Shown here in pieces: positions 3,565 to 26,950 of a stretch of DNA of 64,000 nucleotides (within the stretch, counting starts at the first letter, position 1; every line of letters starts with the position of its first letter). The notes under the pieces were generated by a model. That model was not told the origin of the DNA, ran no database searches, and worked only from the letters and a program-made list of their open reading frames with translations. The stretch comes from an uncultured Lachnospiraceae bacterium (GTDB lineage Bacteria > Bacillota > Clostridia > Lachnospirales > Lachnospiraceae), in contig CAJTSB010000014.1 of the NCBI GenBank assembly GCA_910578825.1, positions 5,783 through 69,782 of the forward strand. Reading direction: 5' to 3'. The position numbers and the translations under genes are program-made.

Positions 3565-4146
3565 CTAATCTCCAATATCCGTGTGCCCCTGCTCAAATTC
3601 CCACTGCAGACCATATTTATCAATAAAATAAAAATATTTTGTATTTCCAAGGATATCCGCCGCCTCCTGTTTTGCCTGCGGATTATTCTCCTTCTGTTTA
3701 TCAAAATAGTAGAAATCAGAAGGTTTCGTCTCACTAATCTGGTACACCCGATAGTCTTCCGTCGTGTTGATTAATGTCACGTCCGGCTGGGACTTTATAT
3801 ACTCGAATGCATCTTCAATATTCACTACTTTCAGGGCTACATGCCTTGCACCACTGATATCGTTTGCCTTAAAAAATACTGGTTCTCTTCGTCCTTTCGG
3901 GTTGTGGTAACACATCAGCTCAATCGTGAATTTCGTTCCGGGCACATCCATAAACCCAATCGAAACTTCCGCCTCTTTTGCCTCCTCTATAAATCCGCCT
4001 GCCTGAAAGAATCCCTCATTTTTCCAATGGGGAATGTGCTGATTGGGAACCGCCCCTAAAATTCTCTCATAATAGTTAAACGCTTCCTCCACATCGTCAA
4101 CAAAAATGCATACATGTGATAATCCTGTAAAAATCGGTCTCTTCAT
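3565..4146 (-). CDS. VOC family protein (glyoxalase / bleomycin-resistance / dioxygenase fold)
   Basis: 193 aa. LSHVCIFVDDVEEAFNYYERILG at the N-terminus and ARHVALKVVNIEDAF in the second half look like the paired beta-alpha-beta-beta-beta modules typical of VOC proteins. Confidence 0.65.
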   Translation of the reverse strand: MKRPIFTGLSHVCIFVDDVEEAFNYYERILGAVPNQHIPHWKNEGFFQAGGFIEEAKEAEVSIGFMDVPGTKFTIELMCYHNPKGRREPVFFKANDISGARHVALKVVNIEDAFEYIKSQPDVTLINTTEDYRVYQISETKPSDFYYFDKQKENNPQAKQEAADILGNTKYFYFIDKYGLQWEFEQGHTDIGD

Positions 4147-4158
4147 CTTTTTGCCTCC

Positions 4159-4350
4159 TTAAATAATTCCTCTGTCCCGGCACAATGCCTCAATGCTTCT
4201 GTCATAAGTTGCCTCCGCCTCTTTGGAAAAGAAACATCCTGGTACGCCCTCATTGTTATCCCTATGGTGGGCTACGCACTCACAGCATTTTCCATGCCTT
4301 GGGCAATCATAGGTACAGGGACAGTCTCTGTTGTTGTCACAAATCGCCAT
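4159..4350 (-). CDS. Small cysteine-rich protein (DUF6485-like)
   Basis: I moved the start to MAICDNN at 4350, which is preceded by AAAAGGAGAA. The sequence CDNNRDCPCTYDCPRHGKCCECVAHH has 7 Cys plus His within 26 aa and is probably a metal or Fe-S binding site. The family name is from memory. Confidence 0.55.
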   Translation of the reverse strand: MAICDNNRDCPCTYDCPRHGKCCECVAHHRDNNEGVPGCFFSKEAEATYDRSIEALCRDRGII

Positions 4351-4484
4351 TTTTTTCTCCTTTTTGTGTATCAATTATGTATCAATAAATATTATTTGAT
4401 CCTTTTAGATTCTATCACGTCATCCTTCTTTTGTAACCACATTGGCATAATTCGTATATTTTACGTCATAATTGTTTCATTTAA

Positions 4485-6068
4485 TTAGTTTTTGCTCTCT
4501 TCTCTCAGCCTCTTTAGATCCAGCATATCAAGACCTGCTGCCAGTTCCACAAGCTCCGTCTGTAGACAAAACAGATTTACCGCAGTGGTAAAAAATTCCA
4601 GTATTGCATTGAGGGCAATCGTAATCGCTATGGCTTCCATAGGAATTTTAAGCTGAACAAACAAAATCGTGTAGCAGGTCAGTGCGCCGCCAGGAACAGG
4701 AGGAGCCGCCACCGCAAGCACAATAGCAATGATAAAAGCTGTAACCAGCCACACCGGTGAAACCGCCACGCCATAGATTTCCGCCATGCAAAATCCCACC
4801 GCCAAAAACATGACGGATACTCCCGGCATAAAAATAACCTGCCCTAAAGAAACGCCGAAATTAACTATCCTTTTGTCAATCCCAAGATCTTTTTCACAGC
4901 ACTCCATATTCACCCCGAAAGCAGCAGAGGAAGACGCCGTAGTCAACGCAATCAAAAAGGTGGGCGCCATCTTTTTCAGCAGTATCCTGGGATGTACCTT
5001 CCTTCTCGTACACACGATCACAAGATACGCCGCCAGAAGAATCACATCTCCCATAAGCATTGCCAGAATCAGTTTATATGCAGGAAAAAATGCGGTAAAG
5101 TCATTTCCCAATATCATATTTAAGATGCTGCCGAATACAAACAGAGGCACAAAGGCTCCTACCGCCTCCATAATAAGTTGGACGATATAGTTGGACTGTT
5201 CCACAAAAGCCGCGGCAACCGTAGTTTTATTACCCAGCATCAGCATTGCCGTTCCGATCAAAACCGCAACAAAAATAATCTGTAGAGGATTCCCCTCTGT
5301 AAAGGGTGTAAAAAAGTTATCTGGAACAATGTCCAGAACCATCTGGAACAATTCGGAGAAATCAAACATACCTCCGCCTCCGACCTCAAAGGAAAAAAGC
5401 AGCATAGTTACCGCACAGGCAGGCAATGTCAGAAAGATGGTCATCAGCAGGAAACGACCAATCATCCTTTTCCCGATCCTGCCCATGGCAGCCATATCCC
5501 CGATACTGTATATTCCCCATATAACCGACAGAAACACCAACGGCCCTGCAATCGCCGACAAAAGTCCCATAAAGCGGTTAAATACAGGACTGATAAGATC
5601 ATTTACCAGAAATTCCCGAATGCCATCCGGCAGGAAACTGCACACCCCTCCGCACAAAACAGCCAGAACCACTGCCAGCACAAGTAAAACTATCTGGGAA
5701 CGCTCTTTCTTTTTCGGAGTAAATACAATCAGATTCCTGCCGTTTTTGTACTGCCAGGCAGGAACCACCCCCATATTGGCAAGCAGCCCCCGCAGTACCT
5801 CGCTCTGTTCTTCTTCTCCTGTGTCAAAAGGATCAAACCGCTCCCCTGTTATGGCAAGCTCCAGACGGACAGACTGAAAACGCCTGATGTATTTTTGCGC
5901 AAATACTGCCTCTGTGCCAAAAGTTTCCTGATATTTTAACAGCGTTTCCTCCAACGCAAGCCGGATTTGAAGAATATTTCTTGCATCCACGCCCCATTCC
6001 CTGAACGTTTCTTCCGCCAAATCAACTGTCTGTGCAATATTCTCATTACTAAGTTTTATCTTTTTCAC
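4485..6068 (-). CDS. Fusion protein: N-terminal degenerate GHKL (RsbW/SpoIIAB-like) domain + divergent DAACS/SDF-family (GltP-fold) symporter
   Basis: 527 aa. Residues ~125-527 carry the SDF hallmarks: HP1 TTASSSAAFGVNM, HP2 AAPPVPGGALT and TM8 NAILEFFTTAVN. Residues 1-122 align with the two other GHKL domains in the operon (see findings). The start lies 9 nt after the PP2C stop. Confidence 0.75.
   Translation of the reverse strand: MKKIKLSNENIAQTVDLAEETFREWGVDARNILQIRLALEETLLKYQETFGTEAVFAQKYIRRFQSVRLELAITGERFDPFDTGEEEQSEVLRGLLANMGVVPAWQYKNGRNLIVFTPKKKERSQIVLLVLAVVLAVLCGGVCSFLPDGIREFLVNDLISPVFNRFMGLLSAIAGPLVFLSVIWGIYSIGDMAAMGRIGKRMIGRFLLMTIFLTLPACAVTMLLFSFEVGGGGMFDFSELFQMVLDIVPDNFFTPFTEGNPLQIIFVAVLIGTAMLMLGNKTTVAAAFVEQSNYIVQLIMEAVGAFVPLFVFGSILNMILGNDFTAFFPAYKLILAMLMGDVILLAAYLVIVCTRRKVHPRILLKKMAPTFLIALTTASSSAAFGVNMECCEKDLGIDKRIVNFGVSLGQVIFMPGVSVMFLAVGFCMAEIYGVAVSPVWLVTAFIIAIVLAVAAPPVPGGALTCYTILFVQLKIPMEAIAITIALNAILEFFTTAVNLFCLQTELVELAAGLDMLDLKRLREESKN
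5703..6068 (-). other. Degenerate GHKL/anti-sigma-kinase-like domain (predicted pseudokinase) at the N-terminus of the symporter
   Basis: IRLALEETLLKYQETFG aligns with IDIAIDELFGNIAHYAY (the N-box Asn is replaced by Lys). ELAITGERFDPFD aligns with ITFIDNGTPYDPL (the G1 Asp is replaced by Thr). LRGLLANMG aligns with IGGLGIYMV (the G2 box is lost). The shared tail is YKNGRNLIVF versus YREGKNILKI. Confidence 0.6.
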
Positions 6069-6076
6069 TTCTCACA

Positions 6077-7516
6077 CTAACCTTTCATCCGTTTCCTATA
6101 TTCGAAACAAAGCATGGTAATGTCATCAAACTGCTCTGCACCGCCTACAAACGCATCAATATCCTTTTTTACGGCAGGAAGCAGCTCCGATGGCGGCAGC
6201 GACGCATTTGCGCAAAGCGCTTTCTCCAATCGTCCCATGCCATACAACTCGTTGTCCTTATTCATGGCCTCCGTCACGCCATCTGTATACTGGAAGAACT
6301 TATCCCCCACTTCAAGCTGCATGGAACCACATTTGTACTGTATGCCTTCTATGCCTGCAAGGACAAATCCTGCCCGTATCTCATAGGGTTCAAATACGCC
6401 ATTCTTTTTACAGATAAAGGGAATCTCATGACCTGCATTTACGAATCGGAATTCCCCCGTCACAAGATCCAATACACCCTCAAAGGCGGTGATAAACATT
6501 CCTTCGCTGTTTGATTCGCACAAAAGATCGTTTACCTCCGTGAACACCTCTCCCAGGTCTCTGCCTGACTGGGTGTGATCCTTAATCAGCGTTTTCCCGA
6601 TAACCATGAACAGCGCCGCAGGCACGCCCTTGCCAGACACATCCGCCGCCACAACGGCAAGGTGACGTTCATCCACCATAAAAAAATCATAAAAATCTCC
6701 GCCCACTTCCCTGGCAGGTTCCATGGCTGCAAACACGTCAAACTCCTCACGATCCGGAAAGGCAGGAAAAATACAGGGCAGCATGGACTGCTGAATATTG
6801 GTGGCAACATTCAGCTCCGCCGCAGTCTTCATGGTCTTTGCGCTCTGATTGATGGAATAAAAAATCATCCAAAATTCCACCACAAATATCAGACACACAG
6901 TAATGTACAGCAGAAAGAACCACGGAGTATTGGGATAAATCCCTACACCGTTTGACACAAGATTAATAAAATAAAAACCTACCACTGAGATAAACAACGC
7001 GGGAAGAAACACCATCATTTTCCCGCCTACCGCCTCAATGGTGCGATGTATGGTCTTTTTCAGGAAACAGGCATATAATATCGAAAATATGGTATAAACA
7101 AAAATCTTAATCAGGATAAAAAAAATCAGGTTCGGCGTATCATAGGGACTTTCCTTGATCAGTCCCAGGGCGGTGCCGAGAAATGTGTCGGTGGTTCCGC
7201 AGAACATAAAGGTACACACATTGGCGATCAGGCAGGCCATCAGGGAAATTGAAAGCTTGGTAGACCAACTGTCTTTGTACAAAAACTGCGGCACAATGCA
7301 TACAAGGGCGGAAAGTCCCAGTATCCCCACCGCGTCATTGTACAAATTAATGGAATAACTCACAAATGCCATGATATAGCCTATGACAGCCCCGATGGTC
7401 CAGAAAACAGCCCGGATTATCCCTTTATATTTCGGGGTAAGCGTAATCCCCGTCAGCAGTCCCGCAAAAACCGACGCCATAAAAACCGCAAAACTCCAAA
7501 GTGCAATTGATACCAT
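6077..7516 (-). CDS. Multi-pass membrane PP2C/SpoIIE-family serine phosphatase (RsbU-like)
   Basis: 479 aa. The N-terminal ~225 aa are very hydrophobic (about 7-8 TM segments). The C-terminal PPM domain has NIQQSMLP, GGDFYDF, ADVSGKGVPAAL, YTDGVTEA and FDDITMLCF, so all metal-binding Asp motifs are present. Confidence 0.85.
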   Translation of the reverse strand: MVSIALWSFAVFMASVFAGLLTGITLTPKYKGIIRAVFWTIGAVIGYIMAFVSYSINLYNDAVGILGLSALVCIVPQFLYKDSWSTKLSISLMACLIANVCTFMFCGTTDTFLGTALGLIKESPYDTPNLIFFILIKIFVYTIFSILYACFLKKTIHRTIEAVGGKMMVFLPALFISVVGFYFINLVSNGVGIYPNTPWFFLLYITVCLIFVVEFWMIFYSINQSAKTMKTAAELNVATNIQQSMLPCIFPAFPDREEFDVFAAMEPAREVGGDFYDFFMVDERHLAVVAADVSGKGVPAALFMVIGKTLIKDHTQSGRDLGEVFTEVNDLLCESNSEGMFITAFEGVLDLVTGEFRFVNAGHEIPFICKKNGVFEPYEIRAGFVLAGIEGIQYKCGSMQLEVGDKFFQYTDGVTEAMNKDNELYGMGRLEKALCANASLPPSELLPAVKKDIDAFVGGAEQFDDITMLCFEYRKRMKG

Positions 7517-7531
7517 TTAGCTTTTTCTCCT

Positions 7532-10500
7532 TCAAAATAAGTCCATCCCACTTAAGGCGGACAAATATTTACTTAGATATTCCTCGGTAATATCGCTCCA
7601 GCCTTCCAGCAGGTTTTGTAAATACCCGCCGGTAAGTTCGTTCACAACAGGTATCTCATAGCGATCTCCCATTTCTTCATTCGTCATAAGCCCCTGTAAC
7701 TGTTCCCTGCCTTCTGCAGTCTGTTTCCGTTTCCGCAACAGCTCCAGGAATTCTTTGTCCGGCAACGCCTCTACGACATAACCCAGCTTTTTGGCTACCC
7801 CAAACAAATCGGCAAATTTTAATTCTACAGGCGGATACACATGGAAGACCGCCGTTTCACCCTCCGTCGCGGTCAGTACCACGATGTTATGCGCCGTTTC
7901 ATCTACCGGTGAAAAATTCACGCTCCCCTCATACACCGTTAAGGGCACAGCTCCCAGCTTAATATAGGAAGAAAACTGGCGGGTAAAGGCATTGGAATGG
8001 AGATTCATCTGGAATTCCCCGTCCTGTATGCGCCCCTGAAGATTCCCGATGCGCATAATTTTTATGTTCAGCCCATCCTTCACTGCCGCCCGCAACAGCT
8101 CATACTCCGCCATATATTTGGAGTAAATATATTTATTATGTATTTCCTGCCCGATATAAAAATCGGATTCACAAAAACATTCCTTGCAGGCATTCCCCGC
8201 CGTCATACCCGCGACGCTGATGGTGGAAATCTGGCAAAGCGTCGCCTGCTCCTTCCTTGCAAAACGGATCAGGTTTCTTACTCCCTGCGTATTGATCTTT
8301 TCCAGATTATCCCCATAAGAAAAATGGGAAACATTCGCAGCAGAATTGATAATGGTGTGGATTGGAACCGGACACTCCTGGGCAAAAATATCTGGATTGG
8401 CGATATCTCCTTCTACCACCAGCCATTTATCTTCATAACTTTCGGAAAAATCTTCTTCCGCGTAATAAAACAGGGAAGATTTCACGCGTTTCAAGGCACT
8501 GAGGGTCTTCTTAGGCCGGGAAAGACAGACAATTTTGCCGCATATATCCGGATTCTTTAAGAGATCCACCAGAATGTGTATCCCAAGATATCCCGTCGCA
8601 CCCGTTAAAAGCACATTTCCGAGAAACTTACGTTTTACCTCCTTTTGCGTATGTGCGGCAAGGTATTCTCCCATTCTTTTGTAATCCAGGGACGCTATGT
8701 CAAATCCCTTATCCCCGCTGCCGTCTGTCTTTTTAAAAATCTTCTCCAGCAAAAGAGCAGGCGTGGGATACTTGTATAAGTCCCCAAATTCCAGCTGATT
8801 CTCGGCAAGTCCCAGCTTTTCCTCGATTTTAAGCATTACAGACACCGCATTCAGGGAATCTCCTCCCAGTTCGAAGAAATTGTCATCCAACCCGACCTGC
8901 TCTATGGACAACGTTTCTCCGAAAGCTTCGCAGACCCATTTTTCCCTCTGCGTTTGCGGTTTTCTATAGACCCGGACATATTCTATCGGTTCCGCCGCCA
9001 GGGCTTTCAGGTCTGTCTTGCCATTGGGCGTCTGGGGCATGGCATCCAGTTCCTTTAACACATCCGGCACCATATAGGAGGCAAGACGCGTTATCATATG
9101 TGCCTTTAATGCCTTCGGGGTCACTGCCCCTTTCGATAACGCCGTATAAAATCCAACCAGATGTCCGGTCTTTTCGATTTTCCGTATCATACAGCAGCAC
9201 GCCGTCACACCCGGAAATTCTCCCATCACATTTTCAATTTCCGACAATTCTATGCGCAGCCCCCGCAGCTTAACCTGCCTGTCGTTCCTGCCGCAATACA
9301 TAAGCTTTCCTTCATTTGAAAAATATCCCAGATCCCCTGTCCGGTACAGTCGGATGCCCCTCCAGTTAATGTATTTTGCTGCCGTTTCCTCTGGCATGGC
9401 CTGATAACCAATACCCACGCCGTTCCCATATATACAGATTTCTCCTGTCGCACCGAAAGGCACCGGATTTCTCTCTCCGTTTAAGAGGATAATGCCCATA
9501 TTGGCGATCGGCATACCGATGGAAACTGCATCTCCCGCCTCGGTGATGGTGGCTCCGATCGTAGTTTCCGTGGGACCGTAACCATTGTAAATCCGCACCG
9601 GACTAATTTTTTCCAGCCGTTTGACAAGGTTTCCCGGAAGAACCTCCCCAGCCGCCAGGATGGCTCTCACACCTTCCATCGCCTTCAGAAAAGCTTTATT
9701 TTCCAGATATGCCGTAATCCGGGAAGGCGTACAGTGAAGGATATCCGCTCCGTGACGCAGGATATGTGCAGACAGTTCCCCTGCGTCTGTGATTGCTTTC
9801 TCATTGCCCAGCTCCACAAACAGACCGTTCATCAAAGGCACAAAAATTTCAAACAGAGAAATGTCAAAACAAATAGATCCAATAGCCACAATGCCGTGAC
9901 AGTTTCTGGTAATATCCCGGTTAAATGGATTGTTATCCGGGTGAACAATATTGGCTATGCCCCTGTGAGAAAGCATCACCCCTTTCGGGCGTCCTGTAGT
10001 GCCCGACGTATAAATCATATAGGCAAGATCCTCCTGCTGGATTGCCGGTAACAGTGCCAAATCCTCCTCCTGGGATAACAGGGTATCAATTTCTATGTAA
10101 TCATAATTCCCGGCAATTTCTACATCCCCGGATGAAATCAGACAAGCCGCCCCGCTGTTTTCCATAATATAGGAAATCCTGTCCGCAGGATAACCGGGAT
10201 CAGCCGGAATAAAGGCTGCACCCGCTTTTGATATGCCAAGAATCGTCGGAATCAGGCGATAATCCCGCTTTAACAGAAAAGCAATTTTATCACCGCTCTT
10301 TACCCCAAGACGCCTGAGCCCACAGGCAATCCTGTTACTGATTTCTTCAAGCTGCCCGAATGTAAAGGCATATTCTCCCGCATACAGGGCCGGAGCATCT
10401 TTATACTGTTTCGCCGCACGCCGAAACAGGGAAGGAATCGTAAGATCCCTTTCAACCGGAAATGTTTTTCCTTTCATCGAGGTGATTTTCCTGTATTCCG

Positions 10501-11827
10501 TTTCTCCCATTGCTTTGATATCAGAAAGTTTCTTCATTTCCTGTCCTGCTGTATCTGCAAGTTCCACAGGCTCCTTTGCACTGCCCGCTGTTCCCTGCGC
10601 TGCAATCTCCAAAATGGCATCACAAAAATATCCTGCCTTTTCCTCTGTATAGACGTTTTCCCGATAATCCGGCTGTAGATCCAGTCCATCCTTTTCATTG
10701 CGAAAAATATTAAAGGTCAGGTGGTTCGACATTTCCCCTGCCACACTAAACCGAACGCTATAAGGAAAGTCTGCACAAAAAGAAAAGCGGTAAAAATTAA
10801 ACACATATTCTGAAAGGGATTCCCCTGTCAGGTCTTCATCACGCAGGACAGAAAGAATCCGGTTAAAACCATCTCCCTTATGGAGCGACGCCTCCCCTGA
10901 CGCACTCTTTACTTTCCGGCAAAGCTCGCCAAAGGTATCCATCTCTTCCACCTGCACCCTAACCGGAACGAGCAGTGTGTAACACCCCAGCGTATTCATC
11001 TGCCCGGACACACGGTTTAAACGGGGCATCAAAAACACCGCATCCCTTTTGCCCGTAGCCCGGGACAGATATAGGGCATATGCTGCTGCAAAAATATAAG
11101 GAATCGAAACCTCCTCTTTCCTGCCAAATTCTTCCATTTGCTTTAATAGTTTTTCCGGTACGCTGACCCGGCAGCTTCCATATCTGTTTCCATCCGCTTT
11201 CTGAGAAAAAACAGCGCTCTCAAACTCTGCGCCGGCAAAATAGGAACTCCAGAATCCGTCTTCCTTCCCGCTTTCGCCATTATCACCCTCCCCCGCATTG
11301 TTGTTTTCGCAGGCAGACCCCAAAACGTTCTCCGGGAAAAATACTGATCGTTCAATCCTTTTCCCCGCAAGCGCATCCAGCATTTTCTGTGCAAACAGGC
11401 TCATGCCGTAGCCGTCGATGATCACATGATGGAAACGCACATACAAAAAGACGCCTCCCTCTGAAAGAGGGATGACCATTGCCTGATACAGACACTGTTC
11501 CATATTGAACGGTCGCCTGTCCATGGCCGCCATATATTCTTCCGCCAGATCCGCAATCCGTTCCGTTTCAATACTACATTCAGAAATCTTCCTTTCCCCC
11601 CGTGAAATCACCCACTCCTCTTCCCTGAGACTAAGAGAAACGGCAAAAATATCCGCGCTGTCAAGCACAGTATCCGCCGCCTCCTTTACTCTCTGCGAAG
11701 AAAAATCCGGCAGATGGAGTTTCAAAGAAATCGTATTCCGCGCGCTGCCTGGACAGACCTGCTCCGTCATTACAATCTGGGTCTGTGATAAATTAAATCT
11801 GCTCATTTGTTCTTCTGCTGTCGTCAT
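7532..11827 (-). CDS. Non-ribosomal peptide synthetase, C-A-T-R (terminal thioester reductase)
   Basis: 1431 aa. The C domain (~10583-11827) has HHVIIDGYG. The A domain (~8993-10465) has MIYTSGTTGRPKG, FDISLFE, NGYGPTETT and PNGKTD. The T domain (~8738-8965) has FFELGGDSLNA. The R domain (~7535-8635) has LLTGATGYLGIHIL and YIYSK (YxxxK). Confidence 0.92.
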   Translation of the reverse strand: MTTAEEQMSRFNLSQTQIVMTEQVCPGSARNTISLKLHLPDFSSQRVKEAADTVLDSADIFAVSLSLREEEWVISRGERKISECSIETERIADLAEEYMAAMDRRPFNMEQCLYQAMVIPLSEGGVFLYVRFHHVIIDGYGMSLFAQKMLDALAGKRIERSVFFPENVLGSACENNNAGEGDNGESGKEDGFWSSYFAGAEFESAVFSQKADGNRYGSCRVSVPEKLLKQMEEFGRKEEVSIPYIFAAAYALYLSRATGKRDAVFLMPRLNRVSGQMNTLGCYTLLVPVRVQVEEMDTFGELCRKVKSASGEASLHKGDGFNRILSVLRDEDLTGESLSEYVFNFYRFSFCADFPYSVRFSVAGEMSNHLTFNIFRNEKDGLDLQPDYRENVYTEEKAGYFCDAILEIAAQGTAGSAKEPVELADTAGQEMKKLSDIKAMGETEYRKITSMKGKTFPVERDLTIPSLFRRAAKQYKDAPALYAGEYAFTFGQLEEISNRIACGLRRLGVKSGDKIAFLLKRDYRLIPTILGISKAGAAFIPADPGYPADRISYIMENSGAACLISSGDVEIAGNYDYIEIDTLLSQEEDLALLPAIQQEDLAYMIYTSGTTGRPKGVMLSHRGIANIVHPDNNPFNRDITRNCHGIVAIGSICFDISLFEIFVPLMNGLFVELGNEKAITDAGELSAHILRHGADILHCTPSRITAYLENKAFLKAMEGVRAILAAGEVLPGNLVKRLEKISPVRIYNGYGPTETTIGATITEAGDAVSIGMPIANMGIILLNGERNPVPFGATGEICIYGNGVGIGYQAMPEETAAKYINWRGIRLYRTGDLGYFSNEGKLMYCGRNDRQVKLRGLRIELSEIENVMGEFPGVTACCCMIRKIEKTGHLVGFYTALSKGAVTPKALKAHMITRLASYMVPDVLKELDAMPQTPNGKTDLKALAAEPIEYVRVYRKPQTQREKWVCEAFGETLSIEQVGLDDNFFELGGDSLNAVSVMLKIEEKLGLAENQLEFGDLYKYPTPALLLEKIFKKTDGSGDKGFDIASLDYKRMGEYLAAHTQKEVKRKFLGNVLLTGATGYLGIHILVDLLKNPDICGKIVCLSRPKKTLSALKRVKSSLFYYAEEDFSESYEDKWLVVEGDIANPDIFAQECPVPIHTIINSAANVSHFSYGDNLEKINTQGVRNLIRFARKEQATLCQISTISVAGMTAGNACKECFCESDFYIGQEIHNKYIYSKYMAEYELLRAAVKDGLNIKIMRIGNLQGRIQDGEFQMNLHSNAFTRQFSSYIKLGAVPLTVYEGSVNFSPVDETAHNIVVLTATEGETAVFHVYPPVELKFADLFGVAKKLGYVVEALPDKEFLELLRKRKQTAEGREQLQGLMTNEEMGDRYEIPVVNELTGGYLQNLLEGWSDITEEYLSKYLSALSGMDLF

Positions 11828-11833
11828 TTGCGT

Positions 11834-12136
11834 TTATTCCTTATCAATGGTCAGAATATCTGCAAACCCGGTCACATCAAATATCTCCATAATGGTATCG
11901 TTGACATGGGTCACACGCATGCTGCCCTGTTTATTCATGGTTTTCTGCGCTCCTAAAAGAACCCTCAGCCCTGCTGACGACAGATAATCCAAAGACTGCA
12001 TATCAATGGTCAGTTCTTCTATTCCGTCAATAGAACCTTTGATAGCTATCTCAAGCTCCGGCGCTGTATTGGTGTCCAGCCTTCCTTCCAGTGCGAGATA
12101 TAAACTGTTTCCCTTTTGTGTTTTTGTAATTTTCAT
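11834..12136 (-). CDS. STAS-domain anti-sigma-factor-antagonist-like protein (SpoIIAA/RsbV family)
   Basis: 100 aa. The motif DYLSSAGLRVLL aligns with SpoIIAA FMDSSGLGVIL, placing Ser54 (codon 11975-11977) at the phospho-acceptor position. The stop lies 6 nt before the NRPS start. Confidence 0.85.
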   Translation of the reverse strand: MKITKTQKGNSLYLALEGRLDTNTAPELEIAIKGSIDGIEELTIDMQSLDYLSSAGLRVLLGAQKTMNKQGSMRVTHVNDTIMEIFDVTGFADILTIDKE

Positions 12137-12259
12137 GTTTGGCCTCCTCTTTCAACAGTAATAAATTGTTTCATCCTGCTGCCAGTCAGCCTATTATAAC
12201 AAATTATATCCATGATTTAAGGCATTTGGCATGGTTCGTATTTTTTACGGCACAATTTG
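12137..12259 (-). promoter_or_regulatory. Only sizeable intergenic gap inside the NRPS operon; possible internal promoter
   Basis: This 123-nt AT-rich gap lies between the kinase stop and the STAS start. The minus strand contains two TATAAT hexamers (GGATATAATTTGTTATAATAGG) but only weak -35 matches. There is no hairpin terminator. Confidence 0.3.
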
Positions 12260-12667
12260 CTATATGTTCTTTTTGATCTTTAATATATTTTTTCCCTCCC
12301 GGTATTCATAGGAAATATCGTCCATGCTCTTTTTGACCATATAAATGCCAAGACCTCCAATCTGCCGCTCTTCCGCAGAAAGGCTGATGTCCGGCTCGCG
12401 TGTTGCCAGAGGATCGTAGGGCGTTCCGTTATCGATAAAGGTAATCACCACTGCCAGAGGATTTTCCGTCACCTCCACGCGGACAGTGGCAGTGCCTGTT
12501 TTTGGATGATAGGCATAGTGAGCAATATTCCCGAACAGTTCGTCAATGGCAATATCTATCTGCATCTGCACCTTCATGGAACATTCCAGCCGCTCTAACT
12601 GCTGATTCACAAATTCTGTAACCTTTTCAATATTTTCAACTGTTGCGTCAATGATTAATTCCTTCAT
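12260..12667 (-). CDS. RsbW/SpoIIAB-like GHKL serine kinase (anti-sigma-factor type, HATPase_c_2-like)
   Basis: I moved the start to MKELIID at 12667, which is preceded by GGAGGGAATGGGAG. This removes the overlap with the PPTase gene. The N-box is DELFGNIAHY, G1 is IDNGTPYDP and G2 is IGGLGIYMVKK. Confidence 0.8.
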   Translation of the reverse strand: MKELIIDATVENIEKVTEFVNQQLERLECSMKVQMQIDIAIDELFGNIAHYAYHPKTGTATVRVEVTENPLAVVITFIDNGTPYDPLATREPDISLSAEERQIGGLGIYMVKKSMDDISYEYREGKNILKIKKNI

Positions 12668-12693
12668 CTTCTCCCATTCCCTCCACTTTCCTT

Positions 12694-13491
12694 TTATTTC
12701 CACCTGCATCCCGATGGCGTCCTGCTTTCAGTTCTTCCACTTTCCTTCCAGAAACACACTGCCGCACAATATTCCCCCAGCCGGTATTCCCTGAATTCAA
12801 ACTCCCCGGGACAGAGAGCCCGCGCCTCATCGTTCTTCCGGCAAAGGACAATCTTTCCCTCCGACGAAATGGTAATCTCAAAGGCGTCCAGAGAAAGCAT
12901 AAGTCCTGTCCCCACCGCCTTCAAAAAACTCTCCTTTAATGTCCACAACCGGGTAAACGCCTCATCCTGCCGTGTACTACCCTGCTGCCCGACAATAAAA
13001 TCATATTCTTTCCGGGTAAAAAAACGTTTTGCAAGATCCAGATCCGCCTTCTGCAACGGTTCAATGTCGCACCCTGTTTCCACACCTGCAAACACCGCCA
13101 ACGCCTTGTTGCCGGAATGGGACAGATTAAAATGAATATGCGGAAACCGGGGCAGATAAGGCTTTCCATTTTCCCTGTAGGACACCACTGCCTCCCGCTT
13201 AGACAATCCCCAGGCGGACAGCCCCTTATCTACTAAAATTCCCGCCCCCAGTGAAAGCCGTTTATCCCTCAAAAGAACATAGGAATCCACTTTTTTCTGA
13301 CGTTGATGAGACATGGTTTGGTAATAGTTGAAAAAGGTTATCTCATTCTCCAGCTCTCCCGTATCCATCCAATACAGAACGGCTCTGTCTTTTTCCAGCG
13401 GCACAGGGACATTGGACTGTCCGGCACAGGGAGGACATATAAACATCCTGCGCAGGCTGTGCAACACAGGCATCCGTCTCTCTGGTTTCAT
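12694..13491 (-). CDS. Sfp-type 4'-phosphopantetheinyl transferase
   Basis: 265 aa with FNLSHSGNKALAVF, GCDIE and WTLKESFLKAVGTG. The ATG at 13491 overlaps the MATE stop (ATGA), suggesting translational coupling. Confidence 0.85.
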   Translation of the reverse strand: MKPERRMPVLHSLRRMFICPPCAGQSNVPVPLEKDRAVLYWMDTGELENEITFFNYYQTMSHQRQKKVDSYVLLRDKRLSLGAGILVDKGLSAWGLSKREAVVSYRENGKPYLPRFPHIHFNLSHSGNKALAVFAGVETGCDIEPLQKADLDLAKRFFTRKEYDFIVGQQGSTRQDEAFTRLWTLKESFLKAVGTGLMLSLDAFEITISSEGKIVLCRKNDEARALCPGEFEFREYRLGEYCAAVCFWKESGRTESRTPSGCRWK

Positions 13492-15275
13492 CCTTCCTGC
13501 ATCCTTTCTGGTTTCGGTTCCATTTTCAGTTCCATAATCGTGTTATTCATATTCAGTACCCTCAGATACTGAAAGTCAGACATAATTTTCCTGATCAGGG
13601 CAATTCCGCCCAAGGCAATCTTCCCACTTTCCTCTTCCTGCGCCTGATATTCCATGGGATTAAATGGTACGCCGTCATCCCGAATCCGAAGAAGATAACT
13701 GCCGTCCTGAATGGTAAAGCTGATGTCGATAAAGTTTCTGTTATTCCCACGATAGCCATAACGGATAATGTTGGCACAAATTTCCTCAAGAGCCAGCCCG
13801 ATCAGCTTTGCGTCCTTTTCCCGGATGCCATTTTCCTCACAGAAGACGAACAGGGCGTCCCGGAGCTTTATCACATCTTCCAGGTGGTTTTCTATCGAAA
13901 AATCCAGACAGGTTTCCTTCGTTACTTCGGGAAGCATATATCTGCCGCCGCAAGGAAATCTACCGGTATGCTGTCCTACCATGCGATAAAGGACACACAG
14001 CAGGATTGTAAAGGCTTCGCTTATCACAGCCGCCACACACACACCGGGAAGCCCCATCCAGACCATTCCGACCAGCGTAAAAGGAACCACCACGGCAAAT
14101 CCCTGTAACACCGTGATTACAGTGGAAAGTCCTGGCTGCAGAATTGTCTGGTAATAAGACATTAAAAACTTATTATACACATAAAACAGGAAACTAAATG
14201 CAATGATACGTAGCTGCGGTATACACATTTCCAGCATCTGGCCTCCTGTGATGCCGAATAGCGCAGCAATCCACCGAGGAAACAGAAGAAACAGTAACAA
14301 AAGAGCTGCAATGGCAAAATAACTGTATGCCAGCACTTTTTTACACAGCGCACGAATCCCATAATAGTCCCTTTCCCCATAAAGTATTCCCGCAATATTG
14401 GGAATCAGGCCGATCACGCCTCCCACGCACAACTCTGCGATCAGAACCGCATTCGCACAAACAGAATAGACCGCCATGGCGTCATTTCCCAGAAACCGTA
14501 CGATTGCTGAATTGACGATTACAGACTCTAACGCAGACATCAGCGTGAAGGCCGCGCTGGGCACTCCTGCCTTCGCCGCCATCTTCACATAGCGTAACGA
14601 TTGCCTGGTATGTACCGAAAGCTTTAACATCCTGTTTTCAGACCGGAAATAAAAAATCACCGTCACCATGCCCACCAGATAACCGACCACCGTAGACAGG
14701 GCGCTTCCTGCCATTCCCATGTTGAAAACTTTAAGGAACAGAATATCCAGCGTCAGATTTACCCCATTAGCAATCACAAAAAGTGTACTCCCCAATTGGG
14801 GATGATTATCTGCATTCATAAAATAACAGAAAAGAATTGCAATGGTCAGAACCGGGATTCCGCCGAAGTTTACCGCAATATAAGGCTCTGCCAGCGCCGC
14901 CATCTGCTCATTTCCGGCAAGGGAATCAGCCAGCATTCCTGGCAGAAAAGGGGTAAGCAGCGCAAAGAGAAGGGATATGGCACCTCCCGCCGCCAGGGAA
15001 ACTGTAAATATGCCTCCCGCCTCCTTCAGCTTACGCTTTCCCAAAAGCACCGACGCCTCAGCCGCTCCCCCCATAGCCAGCATTAACGCTGGCATCTGAA
15101 GGAAAAGCAGCACTGGCATGGAAAGTTCAATAGCAGCCATAGCTTTGGGTCCTAAAATATTACCCACAATCATGCCGTCTACCACATTGCCAAGCTGCAT
15201 GGCCACAGTCATCAGCACTCCAGGCAGAATATACTGGTGAATCTTTTTATGAATTAAGTACGCATTTCGCTCCAT
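13488..15275 (-). CDS. Fusion protein: MATE-family efflux transporter + C-terminal GHKL (RsbW-like) domain
   Basis: 595 aa. Residues 1-~445 form a 12-TM MATE-like body (compare the second MATE at 25583-26926). Residues 447-595 form a soluble GHKL domain. Confidence 0.8.
   Translation of the reverse strand: MERNAYLIHKKIHQYILPGVLMTVAMQLGNVVDGMIVGNILGPKAMAAIELSMPVLLFLQMPALMLAMGGAAEASVLLGKRKLKEAGGIFTVSLAAGGAISLLFALLTPFLPGMLADSLAGNEQMAALAEPYIAVNFGGIPVLTIAILFCYFMNADNHPQLGSTLFVIANGVNLTLDILFLKVFNMGMAGSALSTVVGYLVGMVTVIFYFRSENRMLKLSVHTRQSLRYVKMAAKAGVPSAAFTLMSALESVIVNSAIVRFLGNDAMAVYSVCANAVLIAELCVGGVIGLIPNIAGILYGERDYYGIRALCKKVLAYSYFAIAALLLLFLLFPRWIAALFGITGGQMLEMCIPQLRIIAFSFLFYVYNKFLMSYYQTILQPGLSTVITVLQGFAVVVPFTLVGMVWMGLPGVCVAAVISEAFTILLCVLYRMVGQHTGRFPCGGRYMLPEVTKETCLDFSIENHLEDVIKLRDALFVFCEENGIREKDAKLIGLALEEICANIIRYGYRGNNRNFIDISFTIQDGSYLLRIRDDGVPFNPMEYQAQEEESGKIALGGIALIRKIMSDFQYLRVLNMNNTIMELKMEPKPERMQEG
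13491..13937 (-). other. GHKL/anti-sigma-kinase-like domain fused to the MATE C-terminus
   Basis: The N-box-like segment is LALEEICANIIRYGY (Asn retained). G1-like is LRIRDDGVPFNP. G2-like is ALGGIALIRKIM. The tail YLRVLNMNNTIMELK parallels YEYREGKNILKIKK of the stand-alone kinase. Confidence 0.7.
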
Positions 15276-15295: not shown

Positions 15296-18200
15296 TTATA
15301 TCTTTCCGTCAAAAAATCCCAGGGTTTCCAGCGCCTTTAAAGCATTGTGCAGATAATCCTTATCCGGCATGGGCCACTTAAAGCCCAGCCTGTAGAGTAT
15401 TTTGGTGGTAAAGCTGTTGTCTGCATCAATATAAACGCTTCCTTCCTCACGGTCTCCCGGCAGATAAGCAATCAGTCCGGAGATCAACTGGTTTTTATCC
15501 TCATCCTCCAAGGCCTTCTGCAAGCTTGCGCCAAACTCCTCATCACTTACGGTTTCTATGGCAATTCCCAGGCTGTTCATCTGCTCCACTACATCCGCCA
15601 TCTGAATCACATAACTACTGTAGGCATGGAACACACTGAAATCCCCTTCAGCCCCAGTAAGCCTTACAATCGCCTCCGCCGTAGAATCAATCGGGGAAAA
15701 CTCCGCCGGCATATCCAGCTGGGAAACCGGGAACTTTCCAAGAGCCACATACCCGCGCAGGGTACGCATAAACCCATTGGTAACGGAATTGATCTGGAAT
15801 TCTCCGTCACTGACACGGCTCATGAGATTTCCTACCCTTATCACCCGTCCTTTCATGCCTTTTGCGACGGCTGCCAATACTGCCTTTTCCGCACGGAATT
15901 TGGTATCAATATATTTGTTGGTGATACGCTGCCCGAAATCCAGTTCATTTTCATGGATTTTCTTTTCCTCCGGGAACATCTGCCCCACGTTTTCTCCTGC
16001 CACGCTTACGGTGGAAATCTGAATTAATTCCCTTCCCGTATCACGACACAGGCAGATCAAATGAAGAACGCCCTGATAATTAATCCGCTCCAAAGTATCA
16101 TCTGCGGAGAAGTGTTTTACGCACGCCGCACAATTTATCACCCGGGCAAAATCATATTGTTTCAGGAATTTTACCTTTTCCGCGTCCGTGATATCCCCTT
16201 CAATGACAACAATCCGGTTTCCGAAAAGTTCCTCATAAGGATTGCTGAAGTAATATACAAGCATACTTTTCAGCCTTTTTTCTGCTGAAAGAGCGCTGCC
16301 CCTCCTCAGCAGGCAGTATATGGTATTGTCCGTGGTTTCCACCAGCGTTTTTAAAATATGGGCGCCAAGGAAACCTGTGGCTCCTGTTAGAAGCACGTTG
16401 CCTACGGCTGACGGACGTACCTCATCTACATATTCCGGCGTATTATGCGAAAGAATCTGTCCAATGGAATCCTGCCCTAAATCCTCTTCCGCCGCCTGTT
16501 CTTCCATACCACTTTGCCCATCCTGGTTCTCGCGTTCCATGAGATACCGTTCCAGAGCCAGAGGGGTCTTATATTCAAACAGATCCGCATAGGAAACTCC
16601 AATCCCTGCACTCATGCATTTCATCGCCACTTTAGACGCTGAAAGGGAGGTTCCGCCATTTTCAAAGAAATCATCTTCTATACCGACTTTTTCCACTCCG
16701 AGAGCCATGGCAAAGATTTCACATAATCTGCGCTGTAATTCCGTGCGGGGAGCTACATAATTTCTGCTTTCCTGGGTGTAGTCCGGTTCCGGCAGCGCCC
16801 GTTTGTCAACCTTGCCGTTGTTGGTAAGCGGCAGTTCGGGCAGCTGCATCAACACCCCTGGTACCATATACGGCGTTAAGTATTTCTGCATAAAACAGGT
16901 CAGTTTCTGACTATCCACCTGCTGTTGCGCCACAAAGTAACCGCACAGGAACTGATTGGAATCCTTTTCTTTTACAAGCACAACACTTGATTTCACGCCA
17001 GGATACCGATTCATCACATTTTCAATCTCATCCAGCTCCACCCGCAGTCCCCGGAGTTTTACCTGATTGTCCATTCGCCCCATAAATTCTATCTTGCCAT
17101 GATGGTTCCATCTTGCAAGATCACCGCTTCGGTATGCCTTTTTACCCTCAAAGGTGATAAATTTATCTGCCGTCATTTCAGGTTTGCCCACATATCCCCT
17201 GCCTACGCCGTTTCCGATAATGAGCAGCTCTCCCGGTACTCCGGCGGGAAGCAGGTTCCGGTATTTATCAATCGCCATCATCTTAATATTTGCCATAGGT
17301 CTTCCTATGGTAATCTTCGTCCCGGTCACCTGCTCGAAGGCACATCCGATTGTGGTTTCCGTGGGACCATACCCGTTAAATATGATGGGCGCTGTTCCAA
17401 GGGACATGATTTTCCCATAAAGAGCATCAGGAAACGCCTCTGCGCCCACATTAAACACCTTTATCTGTGACAGCGCTTCCTTCATTTCCGGCATATCAAT
17501 AATATTGATAAGGAAGGAAGGCGTACAAGTCATCATATTCACTCCATGAGCCAGAACCAATTCCGAAAGCGCAAAAGGATTATGGATTTCCTCTTCATTG
17601 GCCATACACACTGTAATACCGTGATACAGGGGGATGCACTCCTCCAGTATGGACACGTCAAAGGTAATGGCAGCAAAGGCCAGGGATACCGTGGCATGAT
17701 CTATATAGGACTGCGCCTCCACATTGTAGGGATTGCCATCCACATAATTCACAAGGTTTTGGTGCTCAATCATAACACCTTTGGGTTTGCCGGTGGAACC
17801 AGAAGTATAAATGCAATAGCACAGATTTTCCGGTCGGATGTCTATCTGAGGATTTTGAATATTCCCCCCTTCCTCCAAAAGCTCTTCCAGACAAAGGACT
17901 TTTGCCGCAATCCTGCCCAAAAGCTGGCCGCGCTGGCTAATTAGTTCCTTCGGCATGATCACAAACTCCGCACCGGAATCCTCCAGTATATAAATAATTC
18001 GCTCATCCGGATATTCCGGATCAATGGGCACAAAAGCCCCTCCAGCCTTCATGATTCCCTGCCTTACGGCATACACATCCACCGTCCGGGGCATCATCAC
18101 GCCCACCATCCGCTCCATGTGCAGCCCCATGTCCAGCAGGTAGTTGGCAATCTTGTTGGCATTTTCATTCAGTTCGCGGAACGTCCGCATTTCCCCGTCC

Positions 18201-24283: not shown

Positions 24284-24454
24284 CTCTGTTTCCTCCATTA
24301 AAGTTTCACTCGCATAATTCGCTCGATAACATTTATAATAAGATAAAAACAGTTTACCAGAAAACTTCCTTATTTTTTTCCTAGTGAGAATACATTGCAT
24401 TTTTTTGAGCATAATTTGTCTGATCCCGGCTTTTTCCCTTTGTATGAATATAAC
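24284..24454 (-). promoter_or_regulatory. Promoter/leader region of the NRPS operon
   Basis: This ~170-nt AT-rich non-coding stretch lies between the upstream terminator and the NRPS start. Only weak sigma-70-like hexamers are visible (e.g. CTGGTA-17-TATAAA), so the promoter position is not resolved. Confidence 0.35.
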
Positions 24455-24487
24455 AAAAACAGTAATCTCTAAGAAATTACTGTTTTT
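24455..24487 (-). terminator. Rho-independent terminator after the CAP-domain gene
   Basis: The stem is AAAAACAGTAAT / ATTACTGTTTTT with a 9-nt loop. On the minus strand the hairpin is followed by TTTTTGTTATATT. It lies inside the spurious N-terminal extension of the NRPS ORF. Confidence 0.75.
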
Positions 24488-24523
24488 GATTTCGAAATTC
24501 ATATTCGATTTTTTCTGCCCGTC

Positions 24524-25507
24524 TTACAATTTAAAAAATTTCACCTGATAGGAAACCGTCTCGTCCAATCCGGTAATCTTCACCTTAAAGGTATCCCCCG
24601 CGCGATAACTTATATTTTTCGGTCGAAAAATAATACATCCCTGTTGTCCGTAATAACTGTTTTCCACATTAAAATAGCCGTTTGACTTCTTGCTGCTGAA
24701 CGTCCACTTTTTCGTCTTTTTTCCTCTTTTACGCGTAAGCGTGACCTTTACTTTTGACTCTTTGACCGGCTTTCCCATACTGATGCTCCACGGCATACTG
24801 TCAGAAAAATATTCTATCGGCATATTTTGCGCCGGCCACGCCACGCCGTAATATTGCGTATCCGTAAAGTTACCGTCGAATGCATACATCGCGGCGTAAT
24901 TATTCACAGAACCAAAGCCCGTTTTTTTCATGACCGGATTTAAAATCCAGCGTCTATGCCCGACACGGTCAATATTACTGACGTCGTCATCTGCCATCCA
25001 CTGCCAGACTACATTATAGGCAAGATTGCCAGACCATGAAGTCATTGCCAGATTGCTGGACCCCGCCCCCTCAAATCCCAGCTTATACAGAGCATTCGAC
25101 ATTTTATTCGGTTTCCGTGGAAAATGGGATAATTCCTGATTCGCAGCGTTGACCAATGCCGCAGCCTGGCATTTCTTGTTGTAGGTTTTGTCCAGTTTGA
25201 CATTTGCAGGTATCCCTGCTATGTAACGCATCGTATTTAAGGCTTTTAATCCCTGATTCAGAGAAGATTTTTTTAATTCTCCCGCCCGGTACGAAGACGA
25301 TTTCACGGAAGGTTTTTTCGCATAGTCTACCTGAGTGTTGATATCAAATTTATGATTTTTCACAAATTTGCGGATATCCTTCTGAGTATGATATTGCACG
25401 TTCATCCCGGTAGTTTTGGGTTTTGCCTGACAGGGAAATGATATTGAGGTTATCCCCAGCAGCAGAACCAGTAAAAAAGCCGACAACTTTGTTATGTTTT
25501 TTTTCAT
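24524..25507 (-). CDS. Secreted CAP/SCP/PR1-like domain protein
   Basis: 327 aa. It has a signal peptide (KLSAFLLVLLLGITSISFPCQA). The CAP-like core has LNTMRYIAGIP, NQELSHFP and GHRRWILNP. The C-terminal ~90 aa look like a beta-rich extra domain. Confidence 0.65.
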   Translation of the reverse strand: MKKNITKLSAFLLVLLLGITSISFPCQAKPKTTGMNVQYHTQKDIRKFVKNHKFDINTQVDYAKKPSVKSSSYRAGELKKSSLNQGLKALNTMRYIAGIPANVKLDKTYNKKCQAAALVNAANQELSHFPRKPNKMSNALYKLGFEGAGSSNLAMTSWSGNLAYNVVWQWMADDDVSNIDRVGHRRWILNPVMKKTGFGSVNNYAAMYAFDGNFTDTQYYGVAWPAQNMPIEYFSDSMPWSISMGKPVKESKVKVTLTRKRGKKTKKWTFSSKKSNGYFNVENSYYGQQGCIIFRPKNISYRAGDTFKVKITGLDETVSYQVKFFKL

Positions 25508-26926: not shown

Positions 26927-26950
26927 AACGTCCTTTCCTGATTTACACAT

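Follow-up and report, generated by a model that had tools for sequence, protein, structure and literature searches.

We analysed a 64,000-nucleotide (nt) stretch of DNA from an uncultured Lachnospiraceae bacterium (contig CAJTSB010000014.1; hereafter the window). The subject of this work is the final gene of a closely packed minus-strand operon for nonribosomal peptide synthetases (NRPSs), an open reading frame (ORF) of 527 amino acids (aa) at 4485-6068; all other features of this gene and operon given below are likewise on the minus strand. According to the ORF list, Pfam, AlphaFold2 (AF2) and Foldseek, the protein joins an N-terminal degenerate GHKL domain to a carrier of the SDF/SLC1 fold. 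With a probability of roughly one half, we propose that it is a sodium-independent carrier of neutral α-amino acids, whose dead kinase domain would dock a phospho-regulated STAS protein. The GTG start of the ORF was supported by the agreement of its N-terminus with homologues and by an AAAGG about 11 nt 5′ of the codon. An initial annotation, made from the sequence alone, had already described a pseudokinase domain fused to a DAACS-fold symporter with rewritten motifs, and several of its claims could be compared with the data below.

The SDF transporter body (residues 129-499; 4572-5684) was recognised by alignments with Protein Data Bank (PDB) chains and by Pfam PF00375 with E=5.2e-62 (210.5 bits; cutoff 27.9), and the NCBIfam DctA and GltP models matched far below threshold (61-74 bits against cutoffs of 513-638). 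The best PDB sequence match was 9bgz, with E-values of 2e-33 (single sequence) and 7e-52 (family profile); the matches also included ASCT1 and ASCT2. The AF2 model of the whole protein (predicted local distance difference test, pLDDT, 80.7) has a predicted GltPh-type fold with scaffold and transport domain, HP1 and HP2. In the Foldseek search, this model resembled inward-facing GltTk, GltPh, ASCT2 and EAAT2 with a target-normalised template-modelling (TM) score of 0.75-0.83, and the top E-values were obtained for GltTk/GltPh and an 'ancestral uncoupled aspartate transporter'. The model itself is inward-facing, a state which is uninformative on its own. The fold named in the initial annotation was thus borne out by both Pfam and Foldseek.

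The alignment register was set by phmmer to PDB chains (9bgz, GltPh) and by a profile of 69 family sequences. In the phmmer alignments, GQVIFMPGVSV faced GATINMDGTAL of 9bgz/GltPh, and LNAILEFFTTAVN faced IDRILDMARTTVN and IDAILDRGRTMVN of 9bgz and GltPh, standing opposite IDAILD(M/R)GRTMVN in GltPh. The family profile gave the identical register and extended it to L502, which lies opposite GltTk D409, the equivalent of GltPh D405. The initial annotation had placed FMPGV at the site of NMDGT, and Glu and Thr at the D394 and R397 equivalents; both alignments returned the same assignments (the latter being E491 and T494), and the profile restored no NMDGT-equivalent residues by a shift of register.

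Conservation was then counted over 69 relatives at 51-88% identity, and the rewritten motifs were found family-wide, not as a peculiarity of the window sequence. In transmembrane helix (TM) 7, FMPGV (residues 413-417; 4818-4832; translation, phmmer and profile) replaces NMDGT, with F413 for N310, P415 for D312 and V417 for T314; the [FY]-M-P-G motif was present in 64/69 relatives, and position 417 was mostly Ala in the family. The TM3 segment RFLLMT (residues 205-210; 5439-5456), equivalent to GltPh Y88-S93 by translation and alignments, carries M209/T210 for the Na3 ligands T92/S93 and F206 for Y89. In TM8 (NAILEFFTTAVNLFCL, residues 487-502; 4563-4610; translation, alignments and conservation), N487 stands for D390, E491 for D394, T494 for R397 and L502 for the Na1 ligand D405, and T495 and N498 correspond to T398 and N401. 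Positions N487, T495 and L502 were invariant (69/69); the D394 position was E or D throughout and that of N401 was N or D (residue 498), and at the Arg position A, T, G or S was found in every relative. The serines of the HP1 motif ASSSAAF (residues 378-384; 4917-4937), facing SSSSGTL of GltPh, were retained with S379 invariant. The HP2 tip AAPPVPGGA (residues 454-462; 4683-4709), facing GTAGVPGAG, showed conserved PPVPGG with P456 and G460 invariant.

These residues were further compared with the published coupling signatures of Reddy et al. (2025; PMC12668577), in which sodium sites are marked by [S/T]92-93, N310, [M/S]311, [D/E]312 and [D/E]405, and proton coupling by [A/L/I/V/M/F]92, L311 and N405. 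The sodium positions read M209, T210, F413, M414, P415 and L502 throughout the family, which differs from the sodium signature; of the proton signature only position 92 fits (M209), 311 being Met and 405 Leu. The ligands that hold the side-chain carboxylate in acidic and dicarboxylate SDF carriers are also absent, with T494 for R397 and V417 for T314. On the other side, the residues which recognise the α-amino-acid moiety were retained, namely the HP1 serines, E/D491, the invariant T495 and N/D498. Because the α-group residues are kept and the side-chain-carboxylate holders have become small or apolar, we infer a neutral α-amino acid as substrate and sodium-independent operation. ASCT1 and ASCT2 have Thr and Cys at the TM8 Arg position. 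A decaying transporter or pseudogene was considered as well and rejected, since the altered motifs are conserved in hundreds of full-length homologues.

A basic residue was observed in TM3 at the GltPh Y88 equivalent (R205; 5454-5456), which was R in 58/69 and K in 5/69 relatives and lies a single turn of the helix away from the lost Na3 ligands. The replacement of a sodium ion by a fixed positive charge is a theme known in other carrier families; such a role for R205 is speculation.

The N-terminal domain (residues 1-120; 5709-6068) was assigned to the RsbW/SpoIIAB-like Bergerat fold by AF2, Foldseek, hhalign and column counts. Pfam returned nothing for residues 1-125 at E<=10, HATPase_c_2 and HATPase_c included, and a hidden Markov model (HMM) of the N-domain family found nothing relevant among PDB sequences, the only match being a spurious one to neurolysin at E ~0.5. 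A clean round-1 RsbW HMM likewise left the domain unmatched at E<=10, and BLASTP against the two GHKL domains of the operon gave weak E-values of 0.006 and 0.15. Profile-profile comparison, in contrast to these sequence-to-sequence methods, which are blind to the kinship, aligned 92 N-domains with 20 operon-type RsbW-like proteins over 110 columns by hhalign (96%, E=3.8e-9), so that the relation is seen by profile-profile and fold comparison only. An iterative HMM search in which the RsbW and N-domain profiles merged was discarded, as whole PP2C-kinase fusions and MATE proteins had contaminated its seed. The AF2 model of the isolated domain (pLDDT 86.7) has the element order beta-alpha-alpha-beta-beta-lid-alpha-beta-beta, with two long helices, a short disordered lid and a terminal beta-hairpin predicted. 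Its best Foldseek matches in the PDB were UsfX, RsbW and SpoIIAB (TM-score 0.65-0.72, E 1e-4 to 1e-3 for the predicted structure), ranking above the catalytic and ATP-binding (CA) domains of histidine kinases. Matched entries hold STAS partners (8ih8, UsfX-RsfB; 6m37, RsbV/RsbW; 1til/1th8, SpoIIAB-SpoIIAA), and 1l0o was a further SpoIIAB entry among the best. The homology of the first 122 residues with the GHKL domains of the operon, as claimed in the initial annotation, was thereby upheld at the level of profiles, and GHKL structural similarity was present.

To characterise the loss of catalytic residues, the hhalign alignment was read together with column counts over 199 family members. In the anti-sigma kinases, the N-box (E-x-x-x-N) serves to bind magnesium and ATP, and the Asp of the G1 box (D-x-G) contacts adenine. 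In the alignment ALEETLLK faced AIDELFGN, so that E41 corresponds to the N-box Glu and K45 stands at the position of the N-box Asn, which agrees with the Asn-to-Lys change annotated earlier. This position was K in 76 members, N in 36, R in 35 and another residue in 52, Asn being kept in 18%. AITGERFDP faced IDNGTPYDP, placing I73 at the G1 Asp and T74 at the next residue; the annotated loss of this Asp thus stands, but its replacement is Ile and not the Thr that had been named. Among the 199, the G1 Asp position was occupied by V, I, L or F, D being absent throughout. The lid comprises about 12 residues (75-86, low pLDDT) and is without GxGxG; the alignment is ambiguous there, and hhalign paired NMG with GLG in this region but across an 8-residue gap. 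Conserved positions in the domain were E40/E41, G75, [DN]79-P80, W105-x-Y107 and G110-x-N112, and a [DN]P[FL] motif and a Y-x-Y-x-x-G-x-N hairpin were shared with the RsbW-like proteins in the hhalign alignment. On this basis a binding-only pseudokinase is well supported, and the best reading of the residues and the model is a domain that would not bind ATP and descended from an anti-sigma kinase of the RsbW/SpoIIAB type.

A polybasic juxtamembrane linker, TPKKKERSQ (residues 117-125; 5694-5720), was delimited from the family alignment, in which the consensus was FTPKKKKRSQ with S124 and Q125 nearly invariant. In SDF carriers the N-terminus is cytoplasmic, as in the topology of GltPh, and the N-domain therefore faces the cytosol. 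A cytoplasmic tail after TM8 (residues 503-527; 4485-4559) was also conserved in the family, with nearly invariant Q503, L506, L509, L513, L516 and L521 and the consensus QxELVELAGSLxMLD; its pattern suggests an amphipathic helix that may lie against the N-domain or against a partner.

The carrier belongs to a very large, uncharacterised family of gut bacteria. A word-indexed search returned 558 proteins, and nearly all of the best 120 were about 525 aa long and spanned the whole query. When the N-domain profile was searched against 1.84 billion cluster representatives (50% identity), 1,132 clusters were obtained at E<=1e-3 and 613 at E<=1e-10; among the best 150 matches the domain was always N-terminal, in proteins of about 520-535 aa or fragments. 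The homologues are named 'dicarboxylate/amino acid:cation symporter' in the databases, and the hosts named were Lachnospiraceae, Oscillospiraceae, Acutalibacteraceae, Ruminococcus, Phascolarctobacterium and metagenome-assembled genomes (MAGs) of Spirochaetales from animal guts. The nearest genome match was a Lachnospiraceae MAG from mouse gut, with 97% identity.

The operon reads, in transcription order, 3068-aa NRPS, MATE-HATPase_c_2, phosphopantetheinyl transferase, RsbW-like kinase, STAS, C-A-T-R (condensation-adenylation-thiolation-reductase) NRPS, PP2C and carrier, with spacers of 6, 15 and 8 nt from STAS through NRPS and PP2C to the carrier. A partner-switching set is present together in the window: a STAS protein with the conserved Ser, a PP2C and an intact GHKL kinase. 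The single-domain STAS protein of the anti-sigma antagonist type (11834-12136; Pfam STAS and TIGR00377) bears the motif LDYLSSAGLRV with its predicted phosphorylatable Ser. The stand-alone RsbW-like Ser kinase (12260-12709; Pfam HATPase_c_2, E=2e-20; NCBIfam RsbW below cutoff) has all boxes intact, the N-box reading DELFGN, G1 IDNG and G2 GGLG. The membrane-anchored SpoIIE-type PP2C phosphatase (6077-7516; Pfam SpoIIE, E=3.7e-44 over residues 283-473) lies directly upstream of the carrier gene, and its N-terminal ~225 residues are hydrophobic. No sigma factor domain was found by Pfam among the operon genes at 4485-15275 or in the inspected cassettes of relatives.

A second transporter of the operon also carries a GHKL domain. 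The MATE efflux transporter (13488-15275; Pfam MatE and HATPase_c_2) ends in a HATPase_c_2 domain which, unlike the N-domain of the carrier, retains the N-box Asn and the G1 Asp (in a D-D-G G1 box), and which matched the RsbW-like proteins with 95.8% by hhalign. This fusion was widespread in Lachnospiraceae, both Pfam domains being present in 119 of the best 120 homologues (of 188), and one homologue bears the JGI label 'efflux pump/anti-sigma regulatory factor'. Automated annotation thus recognises the MATE fusion but misses the N-domain of the carrier. The remaining operon genes encode the C-A-T-R NRPS of 1431 aa (7532-11827; Pfam Condensation, AMP-binding, PP-binding and NAD_binding_4), which sits between the STAS and PP2C genes, an Sfp-type phosphopantetheinyl transferase (12694-13491; Pfam ACPS and AASDHPPT_N), and the 3068-aa NRPS (15296-24502) with three AMP-binding, two Condensation and two PP-binding domains and a C-terminal NAD_binding_4. 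Both NRPSs end in this thioester reductase domain, and together with the transferase they presumably resemble the peptide-aldehyde/pyrazinone clusters of gut Clostridia. A Stachelhaus code for the C-A-T-R adenylation domain (~DIFHLAGIGK), derived by hand, matched no verifiable specificity and was not used.

To see in what company the family occurs elsewhere, genes within 10 kb were counted at loci with usable flanks from clean single-sequence searches, 32 of them distant (51-61% identity; Oscillospiraceae, Phascolarctobacterium, Spirochaetales and others) and 33 close. Orthologues at 64-97% identity showed a matching NRPS arrangement in several Lachnospiraceae, but no NRPS was found at any of the 32 distant loci. 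There a recurring cassette of variable order was observed, made up of an SBP_bac_3-permease, an ATP-binding cassette (ABC) ATPase of 363-383 aa, one to three SDF genes, and RsbW-like, STAS and PP2C genes. At least one of the three switch genes (STAS, PP2C or RsbW-like) was present at 26/32 distant loci, and an RsbW-like kinase gene at 18/32. Between the SDF gene and the closest switch gene the median gap was 50 bp, with 19/28 gaps <250 bp and the same strand in 25/28; by a rough estimate, from the few such modules per genome, chance linkage is expected at a few percent. The STAS motif L-[ED]-Y-[LI]-S-S-A-G-L-R-V, with the phosphorylatable Ser loop, was invariant in 31/33 cassette STAS proteins. 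The pair of SBP_bac_3-permease and ATPase was found at 22/32 distant and 25/33 close Lachnospiraceae loci, and two or three tandem SDF paralogues per locus were common. In its ancestral setting the family belongs to a cassette for amino-acid uptake governed by a partner-switching module, and not to an NRPS cluster.

The ATPases of these polar-amino-acid ABC transporters adjoined the SDF genes at 47/65 loci, and they carry an extra C-terminal domain of 120-130 residues that Pfam does not see (for example at 7223-8374 of locus L017, 7248-8348 of L003 and 7440-8546 of L061). By hhalign this domain was GHKL-like, with 95.6% to the N-domain of the carrier and 87% to the RsbW-like proteins, and it has Gln at the N-box Asn and Tyr at the G1 Asp position. 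A 240-residue N-terminal extension on an MFS protein of locus L004 was also tried as a GHKL-like candidate and ruled out (hhalign <1%); the domain is accordingly not on every cassette transporter. In L017 (Sporofaciens musculi), a DDE transposase at 8515-9849 separates the ABC ATPase gene from the first SDF gene and breaks the otherwise conserved cassette.

Single polypeptides of 842-940 aa which combine an extracytoplasmic sensor, SpoIIE and HATPase_c_2 were observed to adjoin the STAS gene and transporters at some loci (L004 16234-18762; L045 11907-14720; L052 11896-14712; L072 11785-14607). The sensor of the L004 fusion is of the dCache_1/Cache_3-Cache_2 type with HAMP. Judging from this domain make-up, the fused phosphatase and kinase likely act on one STAS protein, with a sensor that is likely for a small molecule. 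In locus L083 (4406-7321), proteins of 394 and 450 aa matching the STAS query lie on either side of a STAS-only gene of 99 aa, and a MATE gene and two SDF paralogues are adjacent; these larger proteins suggest further multi-domain STAS players in some cassettes.

Taken together, the sequence and neighbourhood data are consistent with the following mechanism. The carrier would be of the elevator type, without canonical sodium sites, and may work as a proton-coupled carrier, an exchanger or a facilitator. The stand-alone RsbW-like kinase would phosphorylate the STAS protein on its conserved Ser, and upon a signal the membrane PP2C would dephosphorylate it. Unphosphorylated STAS would then dock on the dead kinase domain of the carrier and switch transport on or off post-translationally, and it would also dock on the related domains of the MATE exporter and, in other genomes, of the ABC ATPases. 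In the window the carrier would supply an amino-acid precursor in step with NRPS synthesis and export. The cassette in the window probably serves NRPS precursor supply, and import of a precursor is preferred over export of a product because the habitual partners of the family are polar-amino-acid ABC importers and the operon already has MATE exporters. The initial annotation had suggested a substrate that is not acidic, a non-canonical mode of coupling, and regulation by way of the pseudokinase domain and STAS; all three are consistent with this proposal and were strengthened by the comparative genomics. More generally, and more tentatively, one phospho-regulated STAS protein in gut Clostridia and relatives may directly gate SDF, polar-amino-acid ABC and MATE transporters through fused degenerate anti-sigma-kinase domains, on an extracellular or membrane signal sensed by PP2C. 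This would be a hitherto unrecognised form of partner switching with post-translational control of nutrient uptake and, in the window, of NRPS precursor import and product export, and the SDF members would form a natural clade with none of the sodium ligands, not even the near-universal N310 and D312.

Several points weigh against this proposal. A switch gene was found within 10 kb at only 13/33 close Lachnospiraceae loci and at none of the other 20 (20/33, ~60%), and since these loci have no switch gene in that range, the linkage of carrier and switch is strong but not obligatory. The docking of STAS on the N-domain is suggested by homology and synteny, SDF carriers are trimers and SpoIIAB/RsbW act as dimers, which bears on the geometry of any complex, and the shortened lid deletes some of the surface by which SpoIIAB touches SpoIIAA. 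The substrate class is read from a handful of aligned residues, and the direction of transport is not fixed by the sequence. Furthermore, N310 and D312 have been lost although proton-coupled homologues retain them, so that transport itself could be gone.

In an alternative reading the carrier is an input of the switch, i.e. a transceptor, whose N-domain would bind or let go of the STAS protein or the kinase depending on substrate occupancy or on the state of the elevator. The switch would thereby be informed of amino-acid availability and would control another target, for instance the MATE exporter, the ABC importer or the NRPSs. The same synteny accommodates such a role, the loss of all ion-coupling residues, N310 and D312 included, fits a binding-only or slow carrier, and co-sensing by transporters has a precedent in DctA-DcuS (PMC5703999). 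We consider it rather unlikely: the phosphatases have sensor domains of their own (transmembrane or dCache-HAMP), HP1, HP2 and the TM8 site show the conservation seen in functional carriers, and the tandem SDF paralogues follow a pattern typical of substrate diversification in transporters.

It is also conceivable, but distinctly unlikely, that the partner of the N-domain, at the GHKL dimer interface, is the RsbW-like kinase; the carrier would be a stand-in for a sigma factor as the sequestered target, from which dephosphorylated STAS would remove the kinase. The N-domain is closest to the RsbW type of the operon, the C-terminal YxYxxGxN beta-hairpin included; by analogy with SpoIIAB/RsbW structures this hairpin may lie at the dimer sheet. 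The absence of a sigma factor from the operon and the frequency of kinase genes at the distant loci point the same way, but this evidence is equally compatible with direct docking of STAS. Moreover, in cassettes with PP2C-fused kinases (937-940 aa) the carrier would have to receive a large sensor protein, and the problem of trimer versus dimer symmetry remains.

More doubtful still is a role in exporting the NRPS product (a peptide aldehyde or a heterocycle derived from it) or in self-resistance to it, in place of precursor import. The carrier shares its operon with two reductase-terminated NRPSs, and its apolar, presumably enlarged pocket and predicted lack of ion coupling could suit a facilitator of a neutral product. 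The operon already has the dedicated GHKL-bearing MATE exporter, however, and a second MATE gene lies at 25583-26950; the usual company of the family is the polar-amino-acid ABC importer, NRPS genes being absent from the distant loci. The residues that bind the α-amino and α-carboxyl groups are conserved as well, yet a peptide aldehyde has no free carboxylate.

An ordinary sodium- or proton-coupled dicarboxylate or glutamate symporter with an unrelated, non-regulatory N-terminal extension, as the database name and the weak DctA/GltP matches would have it, is hardly credible and already contradicted by the motif data. Those matches are far below their cutoffs, and across the family neither the Na1 and Na3 side-chain ligands nor the substrate Arg have been kept. 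The extension is conserved and well folded, has GHKL homology and recurs in >1,100 clusters, and its gene shares an operon with STAS, PP2C and kinase.

Returning to the regulated neutral amino-acid carrier that we propose, its component kinds are already known, namely the SLC1 fold, the GHKL anti-sigma kinase and the STAS/PP2C partner switch. With GltPh, GltTk and AncInt (PDB 9bgy/9bgz/9bh0; PMC12668577) the carrier has the elevator fold in common (Foldseek TM-score up to 0.83), and it retains from GltPh the HP1 serines, the HP2 tip and the T398 and N401 equivalents. AncInt, the 'ancestral uncoupled aspartate transporter', has the full sodium-site residues and the Arg and transports aspartate (Reddy et al., 2025; PMC12668577). 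The carrier resembles AncInt in being predicted not to be sodium-coupled; unlike AncInt, its family has lost N310, D312, T92, D405 and R397 and fits neither signature of that study, and it bears an extra cytoplasmic domain of 120 aa which none of the three has. ASCT1 and ASCT2 are similar in the small uncharged residue at the TM8 Arg and in keeping the acidic D394 equivalent, T398 and N401. They differ in having only ~20% sequence identity to the carrier and no GHKL domain. The ASCTs retain NMDGT and sodium dependence and are obligate exchangers.

SpoIIAB, RsbW and UsfX are like the N-domain in fold, order of secondary structure and profile homology, and here too STAS and PP2C genes are adjacent. 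UsfX offers a precedent as an anti-sigma GHKL protein that binds STAS antagonists without kinase activity. The N-domain is unlike this group in being fused to a membrane transporter, in having no Pfam HATPase_c_2 match and in having no sigma factor partner encoded nearby, and further in its G1 Asp, missing in all members, in the N-box Asn, missing in 82%, and in its short lid.

Partner switches with non-sigma outputs have been documented for SypE/SypA, BtrU/V/W and RbaV (reviewed in PMC8256260), and another with a STAS target, HenR of Anabaena, is described in PMC13555669. The logic of STAS, PP2C and GHKL kinase is common to these systems and the carrier cassettes, but their outputs are gene expression, secretion or glycosyltransferase function, as against the presumed transporters here. 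For MlaB-MlaF, a single-domain STAS protein is reported to bind directly and regulate an ABC transporter ATPase (PMC7367683). This resembles our proposal in that STAS acts directly on a transporter subunit. MlaB binds the ABC ATPase fold itself and not a GHKL-like docking domain, and is not known to be under a kinase/phosphatase switch. In a literature search covering few subscription journals, we found no account of SDF, ABC or MATE transporters that carry fused, degenerate anti-sigma-kinase domains as receivers of a switch, nor of an SDF clade with FMPG for NMDG, and transporter-directed partner switching is absent from the review of STAS-only proteins (PMC8256260). We regard the descriptive part of this work as solid and the mechanism, which is read from sequence, as moderately likely.

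In textbook form, partner switching frees or traps sigma factors. Should our proposal be true, the gating of transporters by fused dead-kinase domains would be a new output class of the STAS/PP2C/kinase switch, by which nutrient transporters are controlled directly and not through gene expression, and abundant gut anaerobes would have fast control of amino-acid uptake and metabolite export. For the SLC1 field, the family offers a conserved natural clade in which the NMD loop and the sodium side-chain ligands are replaced and amino-acid recognition is kept; it is a natural test case for elevator carriers without ion coupling and complements the reconstructed uncoupled ancestor whose structure was solved in 2025. 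For natural products, it flags regulated genes for precursor import and export inside reductase-terminated NRPS clusters of the gut.

Scans for regulatory sites were uninformative, with 14 promoter-like sites against 17.5 expected and 19 terminator-like sites against 13.0 expected. Directly downstream of the carrier gene, a Cys-rich ORF of 71 aa was found at 4159-4374 on the minus strand, with a weak match to DUF6485 (E 0.005, below cutoff), together with a protein of the glyoxalase/bleomycin-resistance fold at 3565-4146, also on the minus strand; both may belong to the cluster, e.g. in the handling of a reactive aldehyde. On the 5′ side of the large NRPS gene, a CAP/SCP-domain protein (24524-25507), the second MATE mentioned above, which is without GHKL, and a divergent LysR regulator (27027-27914) probably mark the edge of the cluster.

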